A stretch of DNA of 5,950 nt from an uncultured Methanosarcinales archaeon (GCA_964447875.1 CAYUUQ010000084.1:1-5950), one strand, 5' to 3'. Positions 1 through 5,125 are shown, numbered from the stretch's first letter. Notes: generated by a model from the letters alone, not told the origin. Numbers and translations: made by a program.

Positions 1-1298
1 AAAACATCATCCCAGAACTAGAACTAAAAAGAACATTATCAAAGTACAAATCCGAAGCAACTATCTACAAAGGATTAAGAGGTGTTGAAACAGCTTTCTA
101 TTCATGCTTAGACATTATGAAACCAGGTGAAGAAACTTTAGTAATAGGTGCGCCCACAAGATCATCATTACTAAATCGTTTTTTTATCAAATTCCATAAA
201 GAAAGAGCAAGAAGAAAAGTAAAGATGCGTATAATCTACAATGAAAGCACAAAAAACGATCTAAGAGCTAAACCAGAAAATCTTCCATTAAGTAAGATAA
301 AGTTCTCTCCAGAAACAACTCCTTCATCAGTAAATATATACAAAGATAAAATTATTATTTTTCCAGAAACAAAAGAACCATTATTAATAGTAATAGACAG
401 TAAAGAAGTTGCTGAATCATTTAGAGTTCAATTTGAGATGCAATGGAATCAAAAAGTACAAGTTTTTGAAGGCCCGAAAAATGCAACAAAATTCTTCACA
501 GATATCCTCTCAGACCTTAAACCAGGAGAAGAATATTTTGTTCTTAATGGAAATCAAGGAATTGAATCTGTTCCGGAAATAAAGAACTTTTTCCATGAAT
601 ACCATAAAAAAAGAGAAAAGATAGGAATAAAAACTAAATTTTTATTTAATCAAAACGTAAAAGATGATATACCTAACTTAGCTAAGTCTCCAGCAGAGTA
701 TAAATATCTTCCAGCTGATTTCAAGTCTCCACTACAAATAACTTTCTACAAAAATAAACTATATATATCTCTATGGGCAAAAAAAGCAATAGGTTTCTTA
801 ATAGAAAGAAAAGACATTGTAGACGCATTTAAAGCTTATTATGAGAATCTATGGAATCAAGATACCGAAGTAACAAAGGGTTTTGACGCACTAAAGTTTG
901 CAGTTAATGATTATGTTGATCACCTAGAAAAAGATGAAAAATATACTGTTTTAGGTGCAACGTTTGGTCCAACTGGATTATCCAAAGAATATGCGAATTT
1001 TTTCAGTAAAATACATAAAAGAAGATATGAAGAAGGTATAGGTGGAAGATTATTATTTAATCCTGAAGCAAAACCAACTATAACTAAACATAGAGAATAT
1101 CATAAATATATAACAAAACCACACAATAAATACAAAATTCTCCCATATAAAACAGAATCACCGGCTGCAATATTTATATCAAAATATAAAACAATGATTA
1201 TACTACAGAAAAAAGAACCAATTATAATAACAATAAAAGGTAAGGAGGTTTCACTTGCTTTCGAAAAAAACTTTGAAGCTATGTGGAAGTTGGCTTAA
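1..1298 (+). CDS. TrmB-like regulator paralog, 5'-truncated by the window edge (the N-terminal HTH presumably lies upstream). Contains three tandem ~130-aa effector-like modules.
   Basis: The frame of the 117..1298 ORF stays open back to nt 3 with no stop codon. The extra residues NIIPELELKRTLSKYKSEATIYKGLRGVETAF align with FLPELKLKQAMHETESETTVFKGIKGAETAF of the 2945..4486 protein. Three internal modules each start with x-V/I-x-K/E-G and end with F/Y-E-x-x-W (FEMQWNQ, YENLWNQ, FEAMWKLA). Stop TAA is at 1296-1298. Confidence 0.8.
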   Translation, partial: NIIPELELKRTLSKYKSEATIYKGLRGVETAFYSCLDIMKPGEETLVIGAPTRSSLLNRFFIKFHKERARRKVKMRIIYNESTKNDLRAKPENLPLSKIKFSPETTPSSVNIYKDKIIIFPETKEPLLIVIDSKEVAESFRVQFEMQWNQKVQVFEGPKNATKFFTDILSDLKPGEEYFVLNGNQGIESVPEIKNFFHEYHKKREKIGIKTKFLFNQNVKDDIPNLAKSPAEYKYLPADFKSPLQITFYKNKLYISLWAKKAIGFLIERKDIVDAFKAYYENLWNQDTEVTKGFDALKFAVNDYVDHLEKDEKYTVLGATFGPTGLSKEYANFFSKIHKRRYEEGIGGRLLFNPEAKPTITKHREYHKYITKPHNKYKILPYKTESPAAIFISKYKTMIILQKKEPIIITIKGKEVSLAFEKNFEAMWKLA

Positions 1299-1486
1299 CC
1301 AAAAAACCTTGTTCTAGCAAAACTAGCAACAATGGCCCCAAATGTAAAAGCTGGAATTGTAACTAAAATAAACTCCATAGCAACACCCATAACATAAGCA
1401 ACAATAGCAAGTTCCACTGATTTCTTCATTCCATCCTCAAAACCTTTAAGGATTATTCTCTTCCACTCTTTTTTGTTAAGTTTCAT
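1295..1486 (-). CDS. Small membrane protein (63 aa), last gene of the minus-strand operon
   Basis: ATG at 1486 lies 2 nt downstream of the preceding gene's stop (1489-1491). A GAGGA-like ribosome-binding site sits just upstream. The basic N-terminus (MKLNKKEWKR) is followed by a long hydrophobic stretch, LAIVAYVMGVAMEFILVTIPAFTFGAIVASF. No family recognised. Confidence 0.6.
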   Translation of the reverse strand: MKLNKKEWKRIILKGFEDGMKKSVELAIVAYVMGVAMEFILVTIPAFTFGAIVASFARTRFFG

Positions 1487-1488
1487 CT

Positions 1489-2169
1489 CTATCTTCCTCT
1501 TCTTTGGTCAGTTCTTCTTCTACTTCTCATTAGTTTACTTGCTGCTTCAGCTGCTTTAAGCATATTCACTTTAGCAGTAATACCGTATGCAAAGCCGTCC
1601 TTATCATCTCTGCCTAGTTTCCAATCACTATACCCAGCATCTGCTCCTACTTCTAATGCACCCAGTTTAACACCAATTCCAGCAGTAATTCTATTTTCTA
1701 ACAAATCTCCGTCTCCAGTTAACTGAACAAGATCAACTAACCGAGGATTAAGTGTTACTCCACCTATTTTAACTTGGGTTCCAGCTTTTAACAAGGTGTT
1801 ATATCTAATAATTTCGCCTTCATCAAGATCATACCTTAGTTCTTCTGACAAAGAAACCTTAAACCTACCTAGTTTCTTATCATAAGTAATATGACCTGAA
1901 GCAATATCAGTTCTATTTTTTGATTCTTGAGTTCCATATGCTAACATTACTTTAAGATCATCAGTTAGCTTGTATGAAAAACCAACTATATCTTTGGAAA
2001 GATAAGTTCCATCTTCATCAGATCTTCTCAGTTGATTAGCAACTAAAGCTGACCTTTGACTTAATGGAACAACCTCAGTTGTAATCTGATTATACTGCCC
2101 TGCTTGAGCATGTCCTGCATAAGCAATTGCAACAGCAGTTGCTATTGCGAGTCCAGTTTGTTTTATCAT
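1489..2169 (-). CDS. Secreted beta-strand-rich protein (226 aa) with a Sec-type signal peptide and an outer-membrane-barrel-like alternating pattern
   Basis: I place the start at ATG 2167-2169, not the TTG at 2188-2190 used by the track. GGAGG lies 9 nt upstream of this ATG. The N-terminus MIKQTGLAIATAVAIAYAGHAQA/GQ looks like a signal peptide with an AxA cleavage site. The rest shows repeated dyad hydrophobic/polar strands (IVGFSYKL, LKVMLAYG, RFKVSLSEE, IIRYNTLLKAG, RITAGIGVKLG, GFAYGITAKVNM) separated by G/D/N-rich turns. The C-terminal tail is Arg-rich (SRRRTDQRRGR). Confidence 0.75.
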   Translation of the reverse strand: MIKQTGLAIATAVAIAYAGHAQAGQYNQITTEVVPLSQRSALVANQLRRSDEDGTYLSKDIVGFSYKLTDDLKVMLAYGTQESKNRTDIASGHITYDKKLGRFKVSLSEELRYDLDEGEIIRYNTLLKAGTQVKIGGVTLNPRLVDLVQLTGDGDLLENRITAGIGVKLGALEVGADAGYSDWKLGRDDKDGFAYGITAKVNMLKAAEAASKLMRSRRRTDQRRGR

Positions 2170-2170
2170 T

Positions 2171-2314
2171 TTATTGCGCCTCCATTCCAAATCTTGTTTT
2201 ACATCTATTACATATATTATTCACAATACTAGAACCACATATTCCACATATGCAATTAGCTTTAAAGTCGTGAACTATAACTTCATCATCCCCATGTAAA
2301 TGTTCAATTTCCAT
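2171..2314 (-). CDS. Zinc-ribbon micro-protein (47 aa), not in the ORF track
   Basis: Manual reverse-strand translation gives MEIEHLHGDDEVIVHDFKANCICGICGSSIVNNICNRCKTRFGMEAQ, with a CxCxxC-x8-CxxC motif. The ATG at 2314 is 1 nt after the upstream gene's stop (2316-2318). Its own stop TAA (2171-2173) is 1 nt before the next ATG (2169). It fills what would otherwise be an unexplained 125-nt gap. Confidence 0.6.
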   Translation of the reverse strand: MEIEHLHGDDEVIVHDFKANCICGICGSSIVNNICNRCKTRFGMEAQ

Positions 2315-2315
2315 T

Positions 2316-2690
2316 TTATTCGGCCCCGCTCTGAACTTCATCTACTAATTGTCCAATATCAAAATCGGCACGATCAATTAACTTACAATCAGGAAATGCT
2401 ATCTCAACTTCTGGTCTATCAATCCCATGCACTATGTAAACTGGTTTCGAATCAATGCCTAACTCAACATCTCTTTCTCTCCATCGATTAATAAGTCTCC
2501 TTGCAGAATCATAAGCAAGATGAATTCCCAAATCTAAAAATAATGCATCTATATGCTTATGATACATAAGGCCCATGGTCTCATTCTCTGAATAAGAAAA
2601 AAGAGTATGAAAAGCAGATCCAAAAACTACTCTAGTTTGATCTTGAATATTCCCATTATATCCATTACAATAAATTATTCTTGATTTCAT
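2316..2690 (-). CDS. Hypothetical cytoplasmic protein (124 aa), family not recognised
   Basis: ORF from the track. The ATG at 2688-2690 is preceded by GAGGT, which overlaps the TGA stop of the upstream micro-ORF. No signal peptide or TM segment. Weak FGS...ENE and FHTL motifs are not sufficient to assign a fold. Confidence 0.7.
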   Translation of the reverse strand: MKSRIIYCNGYNGNIQDQTRVVFGSAFHTLFSYSENETMGLMYHKHIDALFLDLGIHLAYDSARRLINRWRERDVELGIDSKPVYIVHGIDRPEVEIAFPDCKLIDRADFDIGQLVDEVQSGAE

Positions 2691-2699
2691 TTTTCAACC

Positions 2700-2822
2700 T
2701 CATAAAAACCTATAATCTTGGTATTGTTCTTCTTCTTCAGTTTCAGTACAAAACAAGCCCAATAACCATGCATAAGCACTAATTGTTGTTGCTTTCAAGT
2801 CCTGAATAATTTTTTTTATCAT
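2700..2822 (-). CDS. Micro-ORF (40 aa) with a hydrophobic core and acidic tail; first gene of the operon and not in the ORF track
   Basis: Manual translation gives MIKKIIQDLKATTISAYAWLLGLFCTETEEEEQYQDYRFL. A GAGGTGG Shine-Dalgarno sequence (complement of 2828-2834) lies 5 nt upstream of the ATG (2820-2822). The stop TGA (2700-2702) overlaps the ribosome-binding site of the 124-aa gene. Confidence 0.45.
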   Translation of the reverse strand: MIKKIIQDLKATTISAYAWLLGLFCTETEEEEQYQDYRFL

Positions 2823-2944: not shown

Positions 2945-4486
2945 ATGGACTTAAGATTATTAGAGGAAATTGGTTTAACAAAAGGAGAAATAGCTGTTTA
3001 CATGGCTTTACTAGATGTAGGTTCATCAACAGTAGGTCCAATAATAGATAAAGCAAATGTTTCATCCTCAAAAGTCTATGATATTTTAGAAAGACTAATG
3101 GATAAGGGATTAGTTAGTTTCGTAATTAAATCAGGAACAAAAAATTTTGAAGCTGCTGACCCAGAAAGACTCCTTGATTATATGAAAGAAAAAAAGAGAA
3201 GCTTAAATGAACAAGAAGATAAACTAACAAAATTTCTGCCAGAATTAAAATTAAAACAAGCTATGCACGAAACAGAATCCGAAACAACAGTGTTCAAAGG
3301 CATAAAAGGTGCAGAAACTGCTTTCCAAGATATATTAAATCAAAAAGAAGAAGTGGTAGTAATGGGTTTTAGTGATGTTCCAGAAAATTTTCAAGATTTT
3401 TTAGTAAGATGGCACAATAAAAGAGCAAATAAAAAAATAAAATGTCGGGCGGTATTTGGAACAGAATTAAAAAAATTATTGAATTTATCTAAACTACCAC
3501 ATACAAAAGTAAAAGCACATCCATTAGATAATCCTATAGCTATATTGACTTATGGAGAAAAAACATTATTCTCACTAGCTAACGATAACTTATGGATCCA
3601 AGTTAAAAATAAAAGACTAGCTAGAGCAAATAAAGCCAGATTTGAAGAATTGTGGGAACAAGATACTGTAGTTACAAAAGGATTCAAAGCAATGAAACAT
3701 GCACTATATGATATGATAAATAACGTTGATCCCAAAAAAGGATATACTGCATTAAACGCTTGTTGGGGAGATGCAGAATCTAAAGAAAGATATGTCGATT
3801 TCTTCAAAGAATACCATAGAGATAGAAAAAAGAAAAAAGTCAATGCAAAATTATTATTCCAACCGAATGTTCAAGAAATACTTAACAAAAACTTAGAAAA
3901 CTATAACGAATTTTGTCAATATAAAACAATGCCTTATGAACCAGATTCACCAGTTGAAATATTTACAACAGAAAATAAAGTTATAATCATGATACAAGAA
4001 TCAAATCCAACAATCATAACTGTAAACAACAAAACTCTTGCAAAAACATTCAAAACAAGTTTTGAATCATTATGGGACCAAGATGCTAAAATAGTAAAAG
4101 GCCTAGACGGCATCCAAGATATATTTGAACAGATTCTTGCATCAGGTAGCTGTGACTTTATATCTGCAGAAGGATATTTCATGGACATGCGTCCAAAATA
4201 CATAGATGAATGGGAAAAACGGGCAATAAAACACGGGTTTAAGATGAGAAATATAGTAAACCCAGAAGCAAAAGGCCATAGAATTACGAAATTCCCATTT
4301 GCAAAAACAAAATATACCATTCCAAAAGAATTTGCAAAACTAAGCGTTATATGGATATTTGCAAATAAAGTAGTTATAGCTAATTATACTGAAAAAGAAC
4401 CTATTGCATTTGTAATAGAAAATGAAAGCTTACAGCAGATGTATAAAACACAATTTGAACTTCTTTGGAAAAAAGATAAACTATAA
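2945..4486 (+). CDS. TrmB-family transcriptional regulator (513 aa): N-terminal winged HTH, coiled-coil linker, then three tandem effector-like modules
   Basis: The N-terminus MDLRLLEEIGLTKGEIAVYMALLDVGSSTVGPIIDKANVSSSKVYDILERLMDKGLVSF is a typical TrmB-type HTH. The linker (KEKKRSLNEQEDKLTKFLPELKLKQ) is charged. The three modules span aa ~114-239, 240-379 and 380-513. Each begins xVxKG and ends FEELWEQ, FESLWDQ or FELLWKK. Confidence 0.9.
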   Translation: MDLRLLEEIGLTKGEIAVYMALLDVGSSTVGPIIDKANVSSSKVYDILERLMDKGLVSFVIKSGTKNFEAADPERLLDYMKEKKRSLNEQEDKLTKFLPELKLKQAMHETESETTVFKGIKGAETAFQDILNQKEEVVVMGFSDVPENFQDFLVRWHNKRANKKIKCRAVFGTELKKLLNLSKLPHTKVKAHPLDNPIAILTYGEKTLFSLANDNLWIQVKNKRLARANKARFEELWEQDTVVTKGFKAMKHALYDMINNVDPKKGYTALNACWGDAESKERYVDFFKEYHRDRKKKKVNAKLLFQPNVQEILNKNLENYNEFCQYKTMPYEPDSPVEIFTTENKVIIMIQESNPTIITVNNKTLAKTFKTSFESLWDQDAKIVKGLDGIQDIFEQILASGSCDFISAEGYFMDMRPKYIDEWEKRAIKHGFKMRNIVNPEAKGHRITKFPFAKTKYTIPKEFAKLSVIWIFANKVVIANYTEKEPIAFVIENESLQQMYKTQFELLWKKDKL

Positions 4487-4492
4487 CTAAAA

Positions 4493-4894
4493 ATGACAGC
4501 AGAAGAAATAGCAAACAAAGCAAGAAAATCAATAAGTACGTATTGCTATAAAGAATGTAAAGCTTACTGTTGTAGAAAAGGTTATTTAGTTCTGACAAAA
4601 AAACAACTTAATCTTATAACAAAAAACAATCCAGGAAAAGATCAAATAAAACCATTAGTGTTTAACACATTTTCATTAAACCTAAGCCAATCATGCCCAA
4701 GTTTAAAAGATTTCAAATGTGTTATCAATAAAAATAAAGATCGTCCAGATACATGTAAACAATTTCCAGTATTTATTGAAAAAGATACAGTCAGATTATC
4801 CAGTAGATGTCCAGCAATAAAAGAAGGTTTATTCTATCCTTATATCTATGAATGGATTGCATTAGGCTATAATATAATTGAAGGAAAAATCTAA
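4493..4894 (+). CDS. YkgJ-family (UPF0153, CxxCxxCC-type) cysteine-cluster protein, 133 aa
   Basis: It carries an N-terminal cluster C-x3-C-x3-CC (YCYKECKAYCCRKG). A second block, SCPSL...FKCVINKNKDRPDTCKQFP, matches the CP.L...C.IY..RP..C..FP signature of this family. It starts 6 nt after the regulator's stop, so it is probably co-transcribed. Confidence 0.85.
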   Translation: MTAEEIANKARKSISTYCYKECKAYCCRKGYLVLTKKQLNLITKNNPGKDQIKPLVFNTFSLNLSQSCPSLKDFKCVINKNKDRPDTCKQFPVFIEKDTVRLSSRCPAIKEGLFYPYIYEWIALGYNIIEGKI

Positions 4895-5019: not shown

Positions 5020-5125
5020 ATGGTGGCCAAGTTTGCTAAAAGCAAACTTAAATTTGCAAAAGCAAATTCAACCACAAAAGCACTTAGTCAAAAACTAAGT
5101 TAGTACCTAACCCATAGAATATATG
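5020..5125 (+). ncRNA. Degenerate tRNA-like, hairpin-rich element paralogous to the adjacent tRNA. Alternative reading: a leaderless 27-aa cationic micro-ORF at 5020-5103.
   Basis: GGTGGCCAA (5022-5030) matches the tRNA at 5168-5176. GTTAGTACCTAACCCATA (5099-5116) matches 5207-5224 at 17 of 18 positions. The anticodon-stem equivalent CTTAG/CTAAG (5083-5087/5095-5099) differs from the tRNA's CCTAG/CTAGG by a compensatory pair. Two extra hairpins, AAGTTTGCT-AAA-AGCAAACTT (5029-5049) and AATTTGC-AAAA-GCAAATT (5051-5068), sit where the D-loop would be. There is no acceptor 5' strand and no T-arm. The ATG at 5020 opens MVAKFAKSKLKFAKANSTTKALSQKLS, with the stop at 5101-5103. Confidence 0.4.

Follow-up and report, generated by a model that had tools for sequence, protein, structure and literature searches.

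We analyzed a stretch of 5,950 nt with a GC content of 31.8%, deposited under the name of an uncultured Methanosarcinales archaeon (GCA_964447875.1 CAYUUQ010000084.1:1-5950) and referred to here as the window. It carries on the minus strand an operon of five small genes, named A to E, which lies between two genes for TrmB-like regulators and shares a promoter region with one of them. In our reading, to which we assign a probability of about 60%, the locus is an envelope operon under TrmB control in a DPANN archaeon, and its conserved effector, the product of gene D, is a Sec-exported beta-barrel of the bacterial type and a distant relative of DUF2490.

The window sequence is present in four other metagenome records with at least 99.9% identity; such population variants, being 99.9% identical, are uninformative on selection. 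For comparison about 20 kb of context were analyzed per locus. Locus L001 comprises 21.5 kb of a 62.6-kb JGI contig which carries the window sequence together with a paralogous cassette about 3 kb away. This cassette consists of the left-hand trmB gene and its own divergent four-gene operon (L001 4934-6669) for a 41-aa peptide paralogous to A (6535-6660), a 269-aa protein, a 48-aa zinc ribbon paralogous to C (5572-5718) and a 213-aa signal-peptide beta protein paralogous to D; it has no counterpart of E. Locus L012 is an 863-bp contig with a third copy of gene C and the barrel gene P0002, and the loci L005 and L007 belong to metagenome-assembled genomes (MAGs) named Nanoarchaeota and Candidatus Woesearchaeota that hold relatives of the barrel gene. 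Among the neighbours in L001 are genes for KaiC ATPases of the archaeal type, for PurA and for an N-glycosylase/DNA lyase (PRK01229), as well as a LAGLIDADG gene that separates the two members of a radical-SAM/DUF4130 pair. Archaeal markers were also located on the barrel-bearing contigs L005 (TFIIE-alpha, L15e, PurP) and L007 (Rpb7, Spt4, S24e, NurA). Based on these markers and on the naming of the MAGs with barrel relatives, the window organism is best read as a DPANN archaeon of the Nanoarchaeota/Woesearchaeota type. Scans of viral contigs for C, D and A gave no match, so that nothing points to an origin from viruses or mobile elements.

Organization of the operon and its divergent promoter

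ORF calling confirmed the five minus-strand genes of the initial annotation with identical coordinates. Gene A (2700-2822) is the first gene of the operon and encodes a 40-aa micro-protein. It is followed by gene B (2316-2690) for a soluble, acidic orphan protein of 124 aa that occupies the variable slot of the cassette, gene C (2171-2314) for a 47-aa micro-protein with a putative zinc ribbon, gene D (1489-2169) for a 226-aa protein predicted to be exported and to form a beta-barrel like those of bacterial outer membranes (DUF2490-like), and the cassette-specific gene E (1295-1486) for a predicted membrane protein of 63 aa. The gaps amount to 9 nt (A/B), 1 nt (B/C and C/D) and 2 nt (D/E), and the TGA stop codon of A overlaps the GAGGT preceding B, both in agreement with the initial annotation. 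Shine-Dalgarno (SD)-like motifs are GAGGTGG at A, 6 nt upstream of the start, GAGGT at B, GGAGG at D and GAGGA at E; gene C has merely GGGG. An SD-like 4-mer at positions -4 to -16 is available at four of the five starts and at all four starts of the paralogous cassette (8 of 9 in total), compared with a background on the operon strand of 8% of positions and 15% of ATGs. The start of C that gives 47 aa agrees with the paralogue, and the alternative longer starts (56 aa for C; 233 aa from a TTG for D) have no SD-like motif upstream. Gaps, SD motifs and the promoter alignment described below bear out the proposal of one tightly coupled operon with a divergent promoter in common with a TrmB-like regulator.

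Open reading frames (ORFs) of 40 to 60 codons are frequent by chance in the window, and antisense ORFs of even 97 and 128 codons are located inside trmB. Since short ORFs are to be expected in AT-rich DNA, the case for the micro-ORFs A and C must rest on conservation. Both had been described as unannotated, which is correct for C, called by only one of four pipelines, and incorrect for A, called by all four. The database protein P0012 (168 aa, 2.4-kb contig) joins A and B by reading TGA GGT TGA (window 2688-2702) as sense, a fusion that arises from gene calling with code 4/25. Reassignment of stop codons at this junction was ruled out: the junction behind the A paralogue uses TAG and is out of frame, and the P0012 fusion is therefore an annotation artefact. 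A recent horizontal transfer, suspected from the slightly raised GC content of the operon, was also ruled out, because the GC content at third codon positions (GC3), 0.17-0.25 across all genes of the operon, is the same as in the host genes. The raised overall GC content thus stems from the amino-acid composition and not from a recent insertion.

Divergent to the operon, on the plus strand, lies the gene for a TrmB-family regulator of 513 aa (2945-4486), which consists of a winged helix-turn-helix (wHTH) and a coiled coil followed by internally repeated C-terminal modules. The left end of the window (1-1298, plus strand) contains the 3' part of a paralogue that comprises 533 aa in the full contig and belongs to the neighbouring cassette. 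The stop codons of this gene and of the convergent gene E overlap by 4 nt (window 1295-1298, palindromic TTAA), so that no intergenic terminator is possible between the cassettes. The identification of both flanking proteins as paralogous TrmB-like regulators was confirmed with the Pfam model TrmB (PF01978; 56 and 55.5 bits) and by their identity of 36%. The right-hand TrmB matches the structure of P. furiosus TrmB (3QPH) over residues 5-155 only.

The divergent promoter region (2823-2944) comprises two TATA boxes with a GC-rich palindrome between them. The TATA box of the operon (TTTATATA) is located at 2872-2879 on the minus strand, the palindrome CCCCCTAAAGGGG, a candidate TrmB operator, at 2888-2900, and the TATA box of trmB (again TTTATATA) at 2915-2922. 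The latter lies 22 nt before the ATG of trmB, a spacing which suggests a leaderless mRNA. The intergenic regions of both cassettes and of the Nanoarchaeota MAG locus L005 align mutually. On the operon strand they show the order TATATAAA (the trmB TATA box reversed), about 14 nt, CCCC-N4-5-GGGG, about 8 nt, TTTATATA (TATA box of the operon), an SD motif of the GGTGG type and the first ATG. Within the 21.5 kb of L001 the pattern CCCC-N4-5-GGGG is confined to the promoters of the two cassettes (3 matches, which overlap, versus 0.04 expected), and in L005 it occurs only in the intergenic region between TrmB and barrel. L007 has at the same position a different, perfect 7-1-7 palindrome, GTCATATAATATGAC, between divergent TATA boxes. 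From this arrangement we infer that the palindrome may function as TrmB operator.

In L005 and in a further locus, L006, the barrel gene is divergent to a gene for a TrmB of 511 aa, which is 37% identical over the full length to the right-hand TrmB of the window; a second, offset alignment of the right-hand TrmB with the L005 protein revealed internal C-terminal repeats in both. In L007 a DUF2490-like gene is divergent to a shorter TrmB of 243 aa. The linkage of TrmB and barrel is therefore found in three separate archaeal lineages and in the paralogous cassette, and it is the most widely conserved feature of the system. As the barrel gene of L005 occupies the first position behind the conserved 5' region, the ancestral unit appears to be TrmB plus barrel. 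Genes A and C and the variable gene look like lineage-specific insertions, and gene E looks like a cassette-specific addition.

Two further observations concern the regulator genes. For the left-hand TrmB, the start given in the annotation (MNNFLKIMIEK..., L001 6753-6774) is located just 2 nt behind the TATA box of the gene. The second ATG (MIEKTLEEIGLTK), 21 nt downstream, agrees with the N-terminus of the right-hand paralogue and with the leaderless spacing, so that the 533-aa model probably contains 7 residues too many. Behind the right-hand TrmB, 6 nt past its stop codon, starts a gene for a Cys-rich protein of 133 aa (window 4493-4894, plus strand) with a weak match to the Pfam family CxxCxxCC, a putative Zn/Fe-chelating domain (18.5 bits versus a cut-off of 23). 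This gene accompanies TrmB in all assemblies and is therefore probably co-transcribed with the regulator; no equivalent is located behind TrmB in L005 or L007.

The predicted beta-barrel of gene D and the other cassette proteins

The protein D consists of a predicted signal peptide (about residues 1-23, ending in ...AGHAQA and followed by G), about 11-12 predicted antiparallel strands and a C-terminal amphipathic helix with the basic tail RSRRRTDQRRGR. The N-terminus combines K3, the hydrophobic stretch GLAIATAVAIAYAG and the AQA motif in front of G, and residues 3-22 were modelled by AlphaFold2 (AF2) as a detached helix. The same signal-peptide layout can be recognized in P0002, P0006, P0007 and the paralogue. 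A first AF2 model from two sequences was unusable (predicted local distance difference test, pLDDT, of 42). The run with a five-sequence alignment, which replaced it, reached a pLDDT of 79.8 with antiparallel strands connected by short turns and a C-terminal helix at residues 203-224. This model bears out the original description of a beta-rich protein with a signal-peptide-like N-terminus. The alternation of hydrophobic and polar residues is clear in the strands 103-201, and the strand amphipathicity lies above that of 97% of shuffled sequences.

A Foldseek search of the PDB with the D model returned as top matches exclusively bacterial outer-membrane barrels (PcoB, FapF, NanC, intimin/invasin, EspP and OmpG), with template modelling (TM) scores of 0.47-0.53 for the best matches, a probability of 1.0 and a sequence identity of 7-12%. 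In a library of viral structures the matches were phage-encoded OmpC, porin and DUF481 proteins. TM scores of about 0.5 for a predicted model indicate the same architecture as in these outer-membrane barrels, not the same family. With respect to strand number and short turns the model is comparable to the small monomeric 12-stranded barrels PcoB (7PGE), NanC (2WJQ), FapF (5O68) and the beta-domains of intimin/invasin, which differ from D in that all of them come from diderm bacteria and are assembled by the beta-barrel assembly machinery (BAM). The Pfam model Porin_4 (PF13609) matches D with 27.3 bits at a cut-off of 27.0, restricted to profile positions 119-302 of 310 and to a mature protein of about 200 aa with 11-12 strands instead of a full-length porin. 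Classical porins are larger, 16-stranded trimers.

Relatives of D are rare. A word-indexed search of 5.8 billion protein clusters revealed only D itself and P0002 of L012 (49% identity, dN/dS 0.25), and an exhaustive HMMER search, in which a profile of D and P0002 was compared with 1.84 billion representative proteins, added just three more, P0006, P0007 (4e-8) and P0008 (4e-4). Two of these three come from Nanoarchaeota/Woesearchaeota genomes, where each is encoded next to a divergent TrmB gene. The paralogue in the neighbouring cassette is about 30% identical to D. When the members of the family were compared with Pfam one by one, matches were obtained to DUF2490 (at best 5.5e-28, for P0008; E<=0.1 in 3 of the 6 members), OMP_b-brl and DUF481. 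With hhalign, the profile of the archaeal barrels matched P0007 with a probability of 96.7% and the bona fide DUF2490 protein P0008 with 94%. One archaeal relative of D carries the NCBI name 'DUF2490 domain-containing protein'. The initial annotation had considered all five products unassignable; for D this can no longer be maintained, since hhalign, the Pfam analysis of the family and Foldseek place it among the divergent barrels of the DUF2490/MBB superfamily.

DUF2490 (PF10677) is a putative outer-membrane porin family of unknown function (TC 1.B.81; PMC4827864). A preprint of 2026 describes the models of its members as barrels of the outer membrane that carry a Sec signal peptide and bury a network of two Arg, two Glu and a Tyr (bioRxiv 10.64898/2026.07.29.741452). 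D resembles this family in its size (about 200 aa for the mature protein), the N-terminal Sec-type signal peptide, the predicted all-beta barrel and the homology at profile level mentioned above (94% to P0008). The most conserved polar positions of the D family are R49, Y113 with a neighbouring E, and E158-x-R160, and they would be compatible with a buried network of the DUF2490 kind. In contrast to DUF2490, the hosts of D are archaea without known outer membrane or BAM, and the barrel genes are linked with a TrmB regulator, and in the window organism also with two novel micro-proteins. In addition, D, P0002 and P0006 end in an amphipathic helix and a poly-basic tail, which replace the terminal aromatic residue present in the paralogue (…LKVGF), P0007 (…IGYKW) and P0008 (…LKFEF). 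Thus, D falls short of DUF2490 in the Pfam score and in the C-terminal beta-signal, yet the profile comparisons indicate that it is homologous to DUF2490 barrels. Full-text literature searches did not reveal any paper that describes, for DPANN archaea, barrels of the outer-membrane protein (OMP) type together with TrmB; a possible PopA-like relative mentioned for Altiarchaeales (PMC12228718) was all that came near it.

Among the remaining cassette proteins, the micro-proteins A and C are conserved. The protein A begins with a helix of hydrophobic or amphipathic character, and its C-terminus carries the conserved acidic-aromatic motif EEEEQYQDYRFL. The A paralogue ends with EEEEEQYKDYRYL, so that both have the tail EEEEQYxDYRxL in common, and the hydrophobic N-terminal halves share little. 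The proportions of nonsynonymous and synonymous differences (pN and pS) between the two are 0.36 and 0.90, with saturated synonymous sites. The hydrophobicity of A (KD19 0.97) is marginal for a transmembrane helix, whereas that of the paralogue is clearer (1.89). No match to A was found in Pfam, NCBIfam, PHROGs or PADLOC.

The protein C combines the N-terminal motif E.LHG.DEV[IV]VHDF with two CxxC knuckles. The CxCxxC-x8-CxxC pattern noted originally is present, and its CxxC-x8-CxxC portion is invariant in all three known copies, located in the window, at L001 5572-5718 (57% identity) and at L012 1-123 (75% identity). With the L001 paralogue pN is 0.27 and pS 0.64, again with saturated synonymous sites, and the comparison with the L012 copy gave a dN/dS of about 0.2, with 11 of the 20 differences at third codon positions. 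In every copy, including the one in front of P0002 in L012, gene C is located 1 nt upstream of the barrel gene, and C is the best-conserved protein of the cassette (75% identity to L012 versus 49% for the adjacent barrel). The match of C to the Pfam model DZR (PF12773) reaches only 16-17 bits at a cut-off of 27.3, with the four Cys of the knuckles conserved throughout; apart from such zinc-ribbon matches below threshold, Pfam, NCBIfam, PHROGs and PADLOC yielded nothing for C. The word-indexed search of the 5.8 billion clusters revealed C itself and its paralogue only. The sole match to C in a metagenome scan was located on a high-GC bacterial purK contig and was dismissed as chance.

Because both micro-ORFs recur in the paralogous cassette, C also in L012, and show pN below pS, they are real genes, as had been suspected, and are under purifying selection. 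Purifying selection acts on A, C and D, and the whole unit of TrmB and operon is duplicated in tandem. The EEEEQYxDYRxL peptide and the DEVIVHDF zinc ribbon represent two new micro-protein families. Zinc-finger micro-proteins are known from archaea, e.g. the small CPxCG-type proteins of Haloferax volcanii. C resembles them in its length of about 50 aa, the single putative four-Cys zinc ribbon, its conservation and the fact that such genes are often missed by annotation; it differs from them in that no sequence relationship was found, and by its own N-terminal motif E.LHG.DEVIVHDF and its fixed 1-nt junction with the barrel gene. No A- or C-like ORF was detected when L005 and L007 were scanned for the motifs. 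On the far side of its TrmB gene, L007 encodes (8075-9051) two small proteins of 114 and 96 aa, both predicted to be membrane proteins, and in tandem two micro-proteins of 49 and 50 aa with zinc ribbons of the pattern CxxC-x9-11-CxxC, a loose parallel to the micro-protein content of the window cassette. A zinc-ribbon ORF of L007 was considered as a relative of C and rejected, as an E value of 0.04 in a set of 1,277 ORFs is too weak to use.

For B, the word-indexed search identified only B itself among the 5.8 billion protein clusters, and searches of Pfam, NCBIfam, PHROGs, PADLOC and the PDB sequences gave no match. Its slot in the paralogous cassette is filled by the unrelated 269-aa protein, which is also without match among the PDB sequences. 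E has a basic N-terminus followed by about 34 hydrophobic residues; the strong hydrophobicity of this segment (KD19 2.32) agrees with the earlier prediction of a membrane protein. No homologue of E was found at the related loci and no match in Pfam, NCBIfam, PHROGs or PADLOC. In L012, where a T-run follows the D homologue, E is absent.

Proposed mechanism and alternative explanations

According to the preferred reading, the ancestral unit consisted of the genes for TrmB and the barrel, transcribed divergently from a compact promoter with two TATA boxes flanking a palindrome. In this genome the unit is duplicated in tandem; the genes for the 40-aa peptide, the variable orphan and the 47-aa zinc ribbon appear to have been inserted between promoter and barrel, and the gene for the 63-aa membrane protein to have been appended in one copy of the cassette. 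The palindrome directly adjoins the TFB recognition element (BRE)/TATA of the operon, and on its other side it precedes the TATA box of trmB by 14 nt. A TrmB dimer would bind the palindrome and would co-regulate both its own gene and the operon in response to a ligand sensed by the repeated C-terminal modules. The polycistronic mRNA would be translated by coupling. D would be exported, lose its signal peptide after AQA and form at the cell surface a barrel of 11-12 strands with a polar, charged interior. A and E would be located in the cytoplasmic membrane, and C would stay in the cytosol in a fixed ratio with D, with a role for example in pre-protein handling or post-transcriptional control.

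In Thermococcales (P. furiosus and T. litoralis), TrmB is encoded beside the operon for a trehalose/maltose ATP-binding cassette (ABC) transporter. The arrangement described here is similar in that a wHTH regulator is encoded beside genes for envelope traffic, which it presumably controls via a palindromic promoter site. It is different with regard to the C-terminus, which is an internally repeated module and not the known sugar-binding domain, the candidate operator, which is unlike the Thermococcales glycolytic motif (TGM), and the putative target, a beta-barrel instead of an ABC transporter.

Several points weigh against this reading. Neither BAM nor a lipid outer membrane with beta-barrels is known from any archaeon, which leaves the destination of D unexplained. 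D itself reaches only 17.4 bits with DUF2490, below the Pfam gathering score of 29.8, and instead of a C-terminal aromatic beta-signal it ends with ...KVNMLKAAEAASKLMRSRRRTDQRRGR, i.e. helix and basic tail. The AF2 model was built on just five sequences. Beyond residue 155 of TrmB no sugar-binding domain is detectable with 3QPH or the NCBIfam TrmB models, and binding of TrmB to the palindrome is deduced from a candidate site. A and C turned up in this population only, A with two paralogues, B and E have no support from conservation, and the roles of A, B, C and E are inferred.

The envelope or export character proposed in the initial annotation fits with the signal peptide and the predicted outer-membrane-type barrel fold of D. 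The same two features would also be expected for a protein that a symbiont secretes and that spontaneously enters a foreign membrane, either the host's or that of a bacterial partner, as nutrient conduit or pore-forming effector, with TrmB coupling its synthesis to nutrient status; this explanation differs from the preferred one solely in the final location of the barrel. DPANN archaea are mostly episymbionts which depend on metabolites of a host and have no outer membrane of their own. The hosts of D belong to this group, and its family is tiny and lineage-restricted, as is often the case for accessory interaction genes. However, no host is known, secretion past the cell surface would be an additional assumption, and the conserved charged interior (R49, Y113, E158, R160), which resembles the buried network reported for DUF2490 (bioRxiv 10.64898/2026.07.29.741452), favours a plugged barrel over an open pore, so that we regard a host-directed pore as unlikely. 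Still less probable is the original model of a single envelope or export complex of all five products with fixed stoichiometry. It was suggested by the gaps of only 1-9 nt, which point to translational coupling, and by the mixture of cytosolic, membrane and exported products. The five-gene set does not co-occur elsewhere: the paralogous cassette contains the unrelated 269-aa protein in place of the orphan B and has no E, L012 has C and D without E, and two other archaeal genomes retain only TrmB and the barrel. An obligate five-part complex is therefore not borne out.

Gene A might also encode a regulatory leader peptide of the MifM/SecM type, whose hydrophobic segment reports membrane insertion or secretion while the acidic C-terminal motif stalls the ribosome and thereby controls how the genes behind it are translated. 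In MifM, too, a transmembrane segment at the N-terminus is combined with an acidic cluster that causes arrest. In line with this idea, A is the first gene, its stop codon overlaps the SD motif of the second gene in both cassettes (TGAGGTTGAA and TAGGTTGAA), and strong conservation is limited to the last 12 residues. We nevertheless consider such a function very improbable: at the A/B junction neither cassette shows a stable or conserved mRNA structure, nor a hairpin that sequesters the SD motif (fold z -0.5 to +1.4), the downstream genes carry strong SD motifs of their own, and the barrel gene of L005 is located behind the same 5' region without an A-like ORF. The least credible alternative regards the barrel gene as a functionless relic of a transfer from bacteria, or the contigs as contaminated or mis-assembled. 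In its favour, DUF2490 and the further families matched by the barrel occur overwhelmingly in bacteria (PMC4827864; bioRxiv 10.64898/2026.07.29.741452), and archaeal relatives of the barrel are extremely rare. This alternative is already largely refuted by the dN/dS of D, by the signal peptide kept in all archaeal copies, by the conservation of promoter, candidate operator and TrmB partner in three archaeal lineages, by archaeal markers on barrel-bearing contigs, one of them 712 kb in length, by the GC3 identical to that of the host genes, and by the independent assembly of the same sequence in several samples.

OMP-type beta-barrels that span a membrane are considered characteristic of diderm bacteria and of organelles. 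A conserved and selected barrel of this type with signal peptide and dedicated regulator in DPANN archaea, a group not known for such barrels, raises testable questions as to how these organisms construct their envelope, or how they breach that of a host. A more far-reaching proposal is that some DPANN archaea use BAM-independent barrels of the bacterial type at a level set by TrmB, either in an unrecognized outer lipid layer or by insertion into a host membrane, with the A and C families as assembly or targeting factors; we put it forward only tentatively and consider it rather doubtful. If the barrel is merely an acquired surface protein, the result is a modest addition to the DUF2490 family. 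The locus furthermore provides two validated micro-protein families of a kind often missed by gene callers, and a compact, conserved archaeal divergent promoter with a candidate operator which could serve as a model for TrmB-type regulation.

Additional features of the window and its contig

In L001 (13211-16122) a LAGLIDADG homing-endonuclease-like gene (393 aa) is located between a radical-SAM DNA-repair gene (TIGR03916) and the gene for DUF4130, its usual partner. The junctions of the LAGLIDADG gene are tight, with a distance of 1 nt on one side and an overlap of 4 nt on the other.

On the right side of the window a tRNA-like stretch was recognized on the plus strand (5163-5290), with a partial repeat at 5021-5110. 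The 5' acceptor strand reads GGCGCGG and the anticodon arm CCUAG-UUGAAGG-CUAGG; a D arm, an extra arm of considerable length and GCGGGUUCAAAU can also be recognized. The strand complementary to the acceptor, CCGCGCC-G-CA, is reached only after another 45 nt or so, which gives the appearance of an interrupted T arm. The upstream segment repeats GGTGGCCAA and GTTAGTAyCTAACCCATA. The Rfam tRNA model gives a score of 17 bits, compared with a gathering score of 29, and ARAGORN, run with and without introns, did not report a tRNA in this stretch. It may represent an intron-containing, split or degenerate archaeal tRNA gene.

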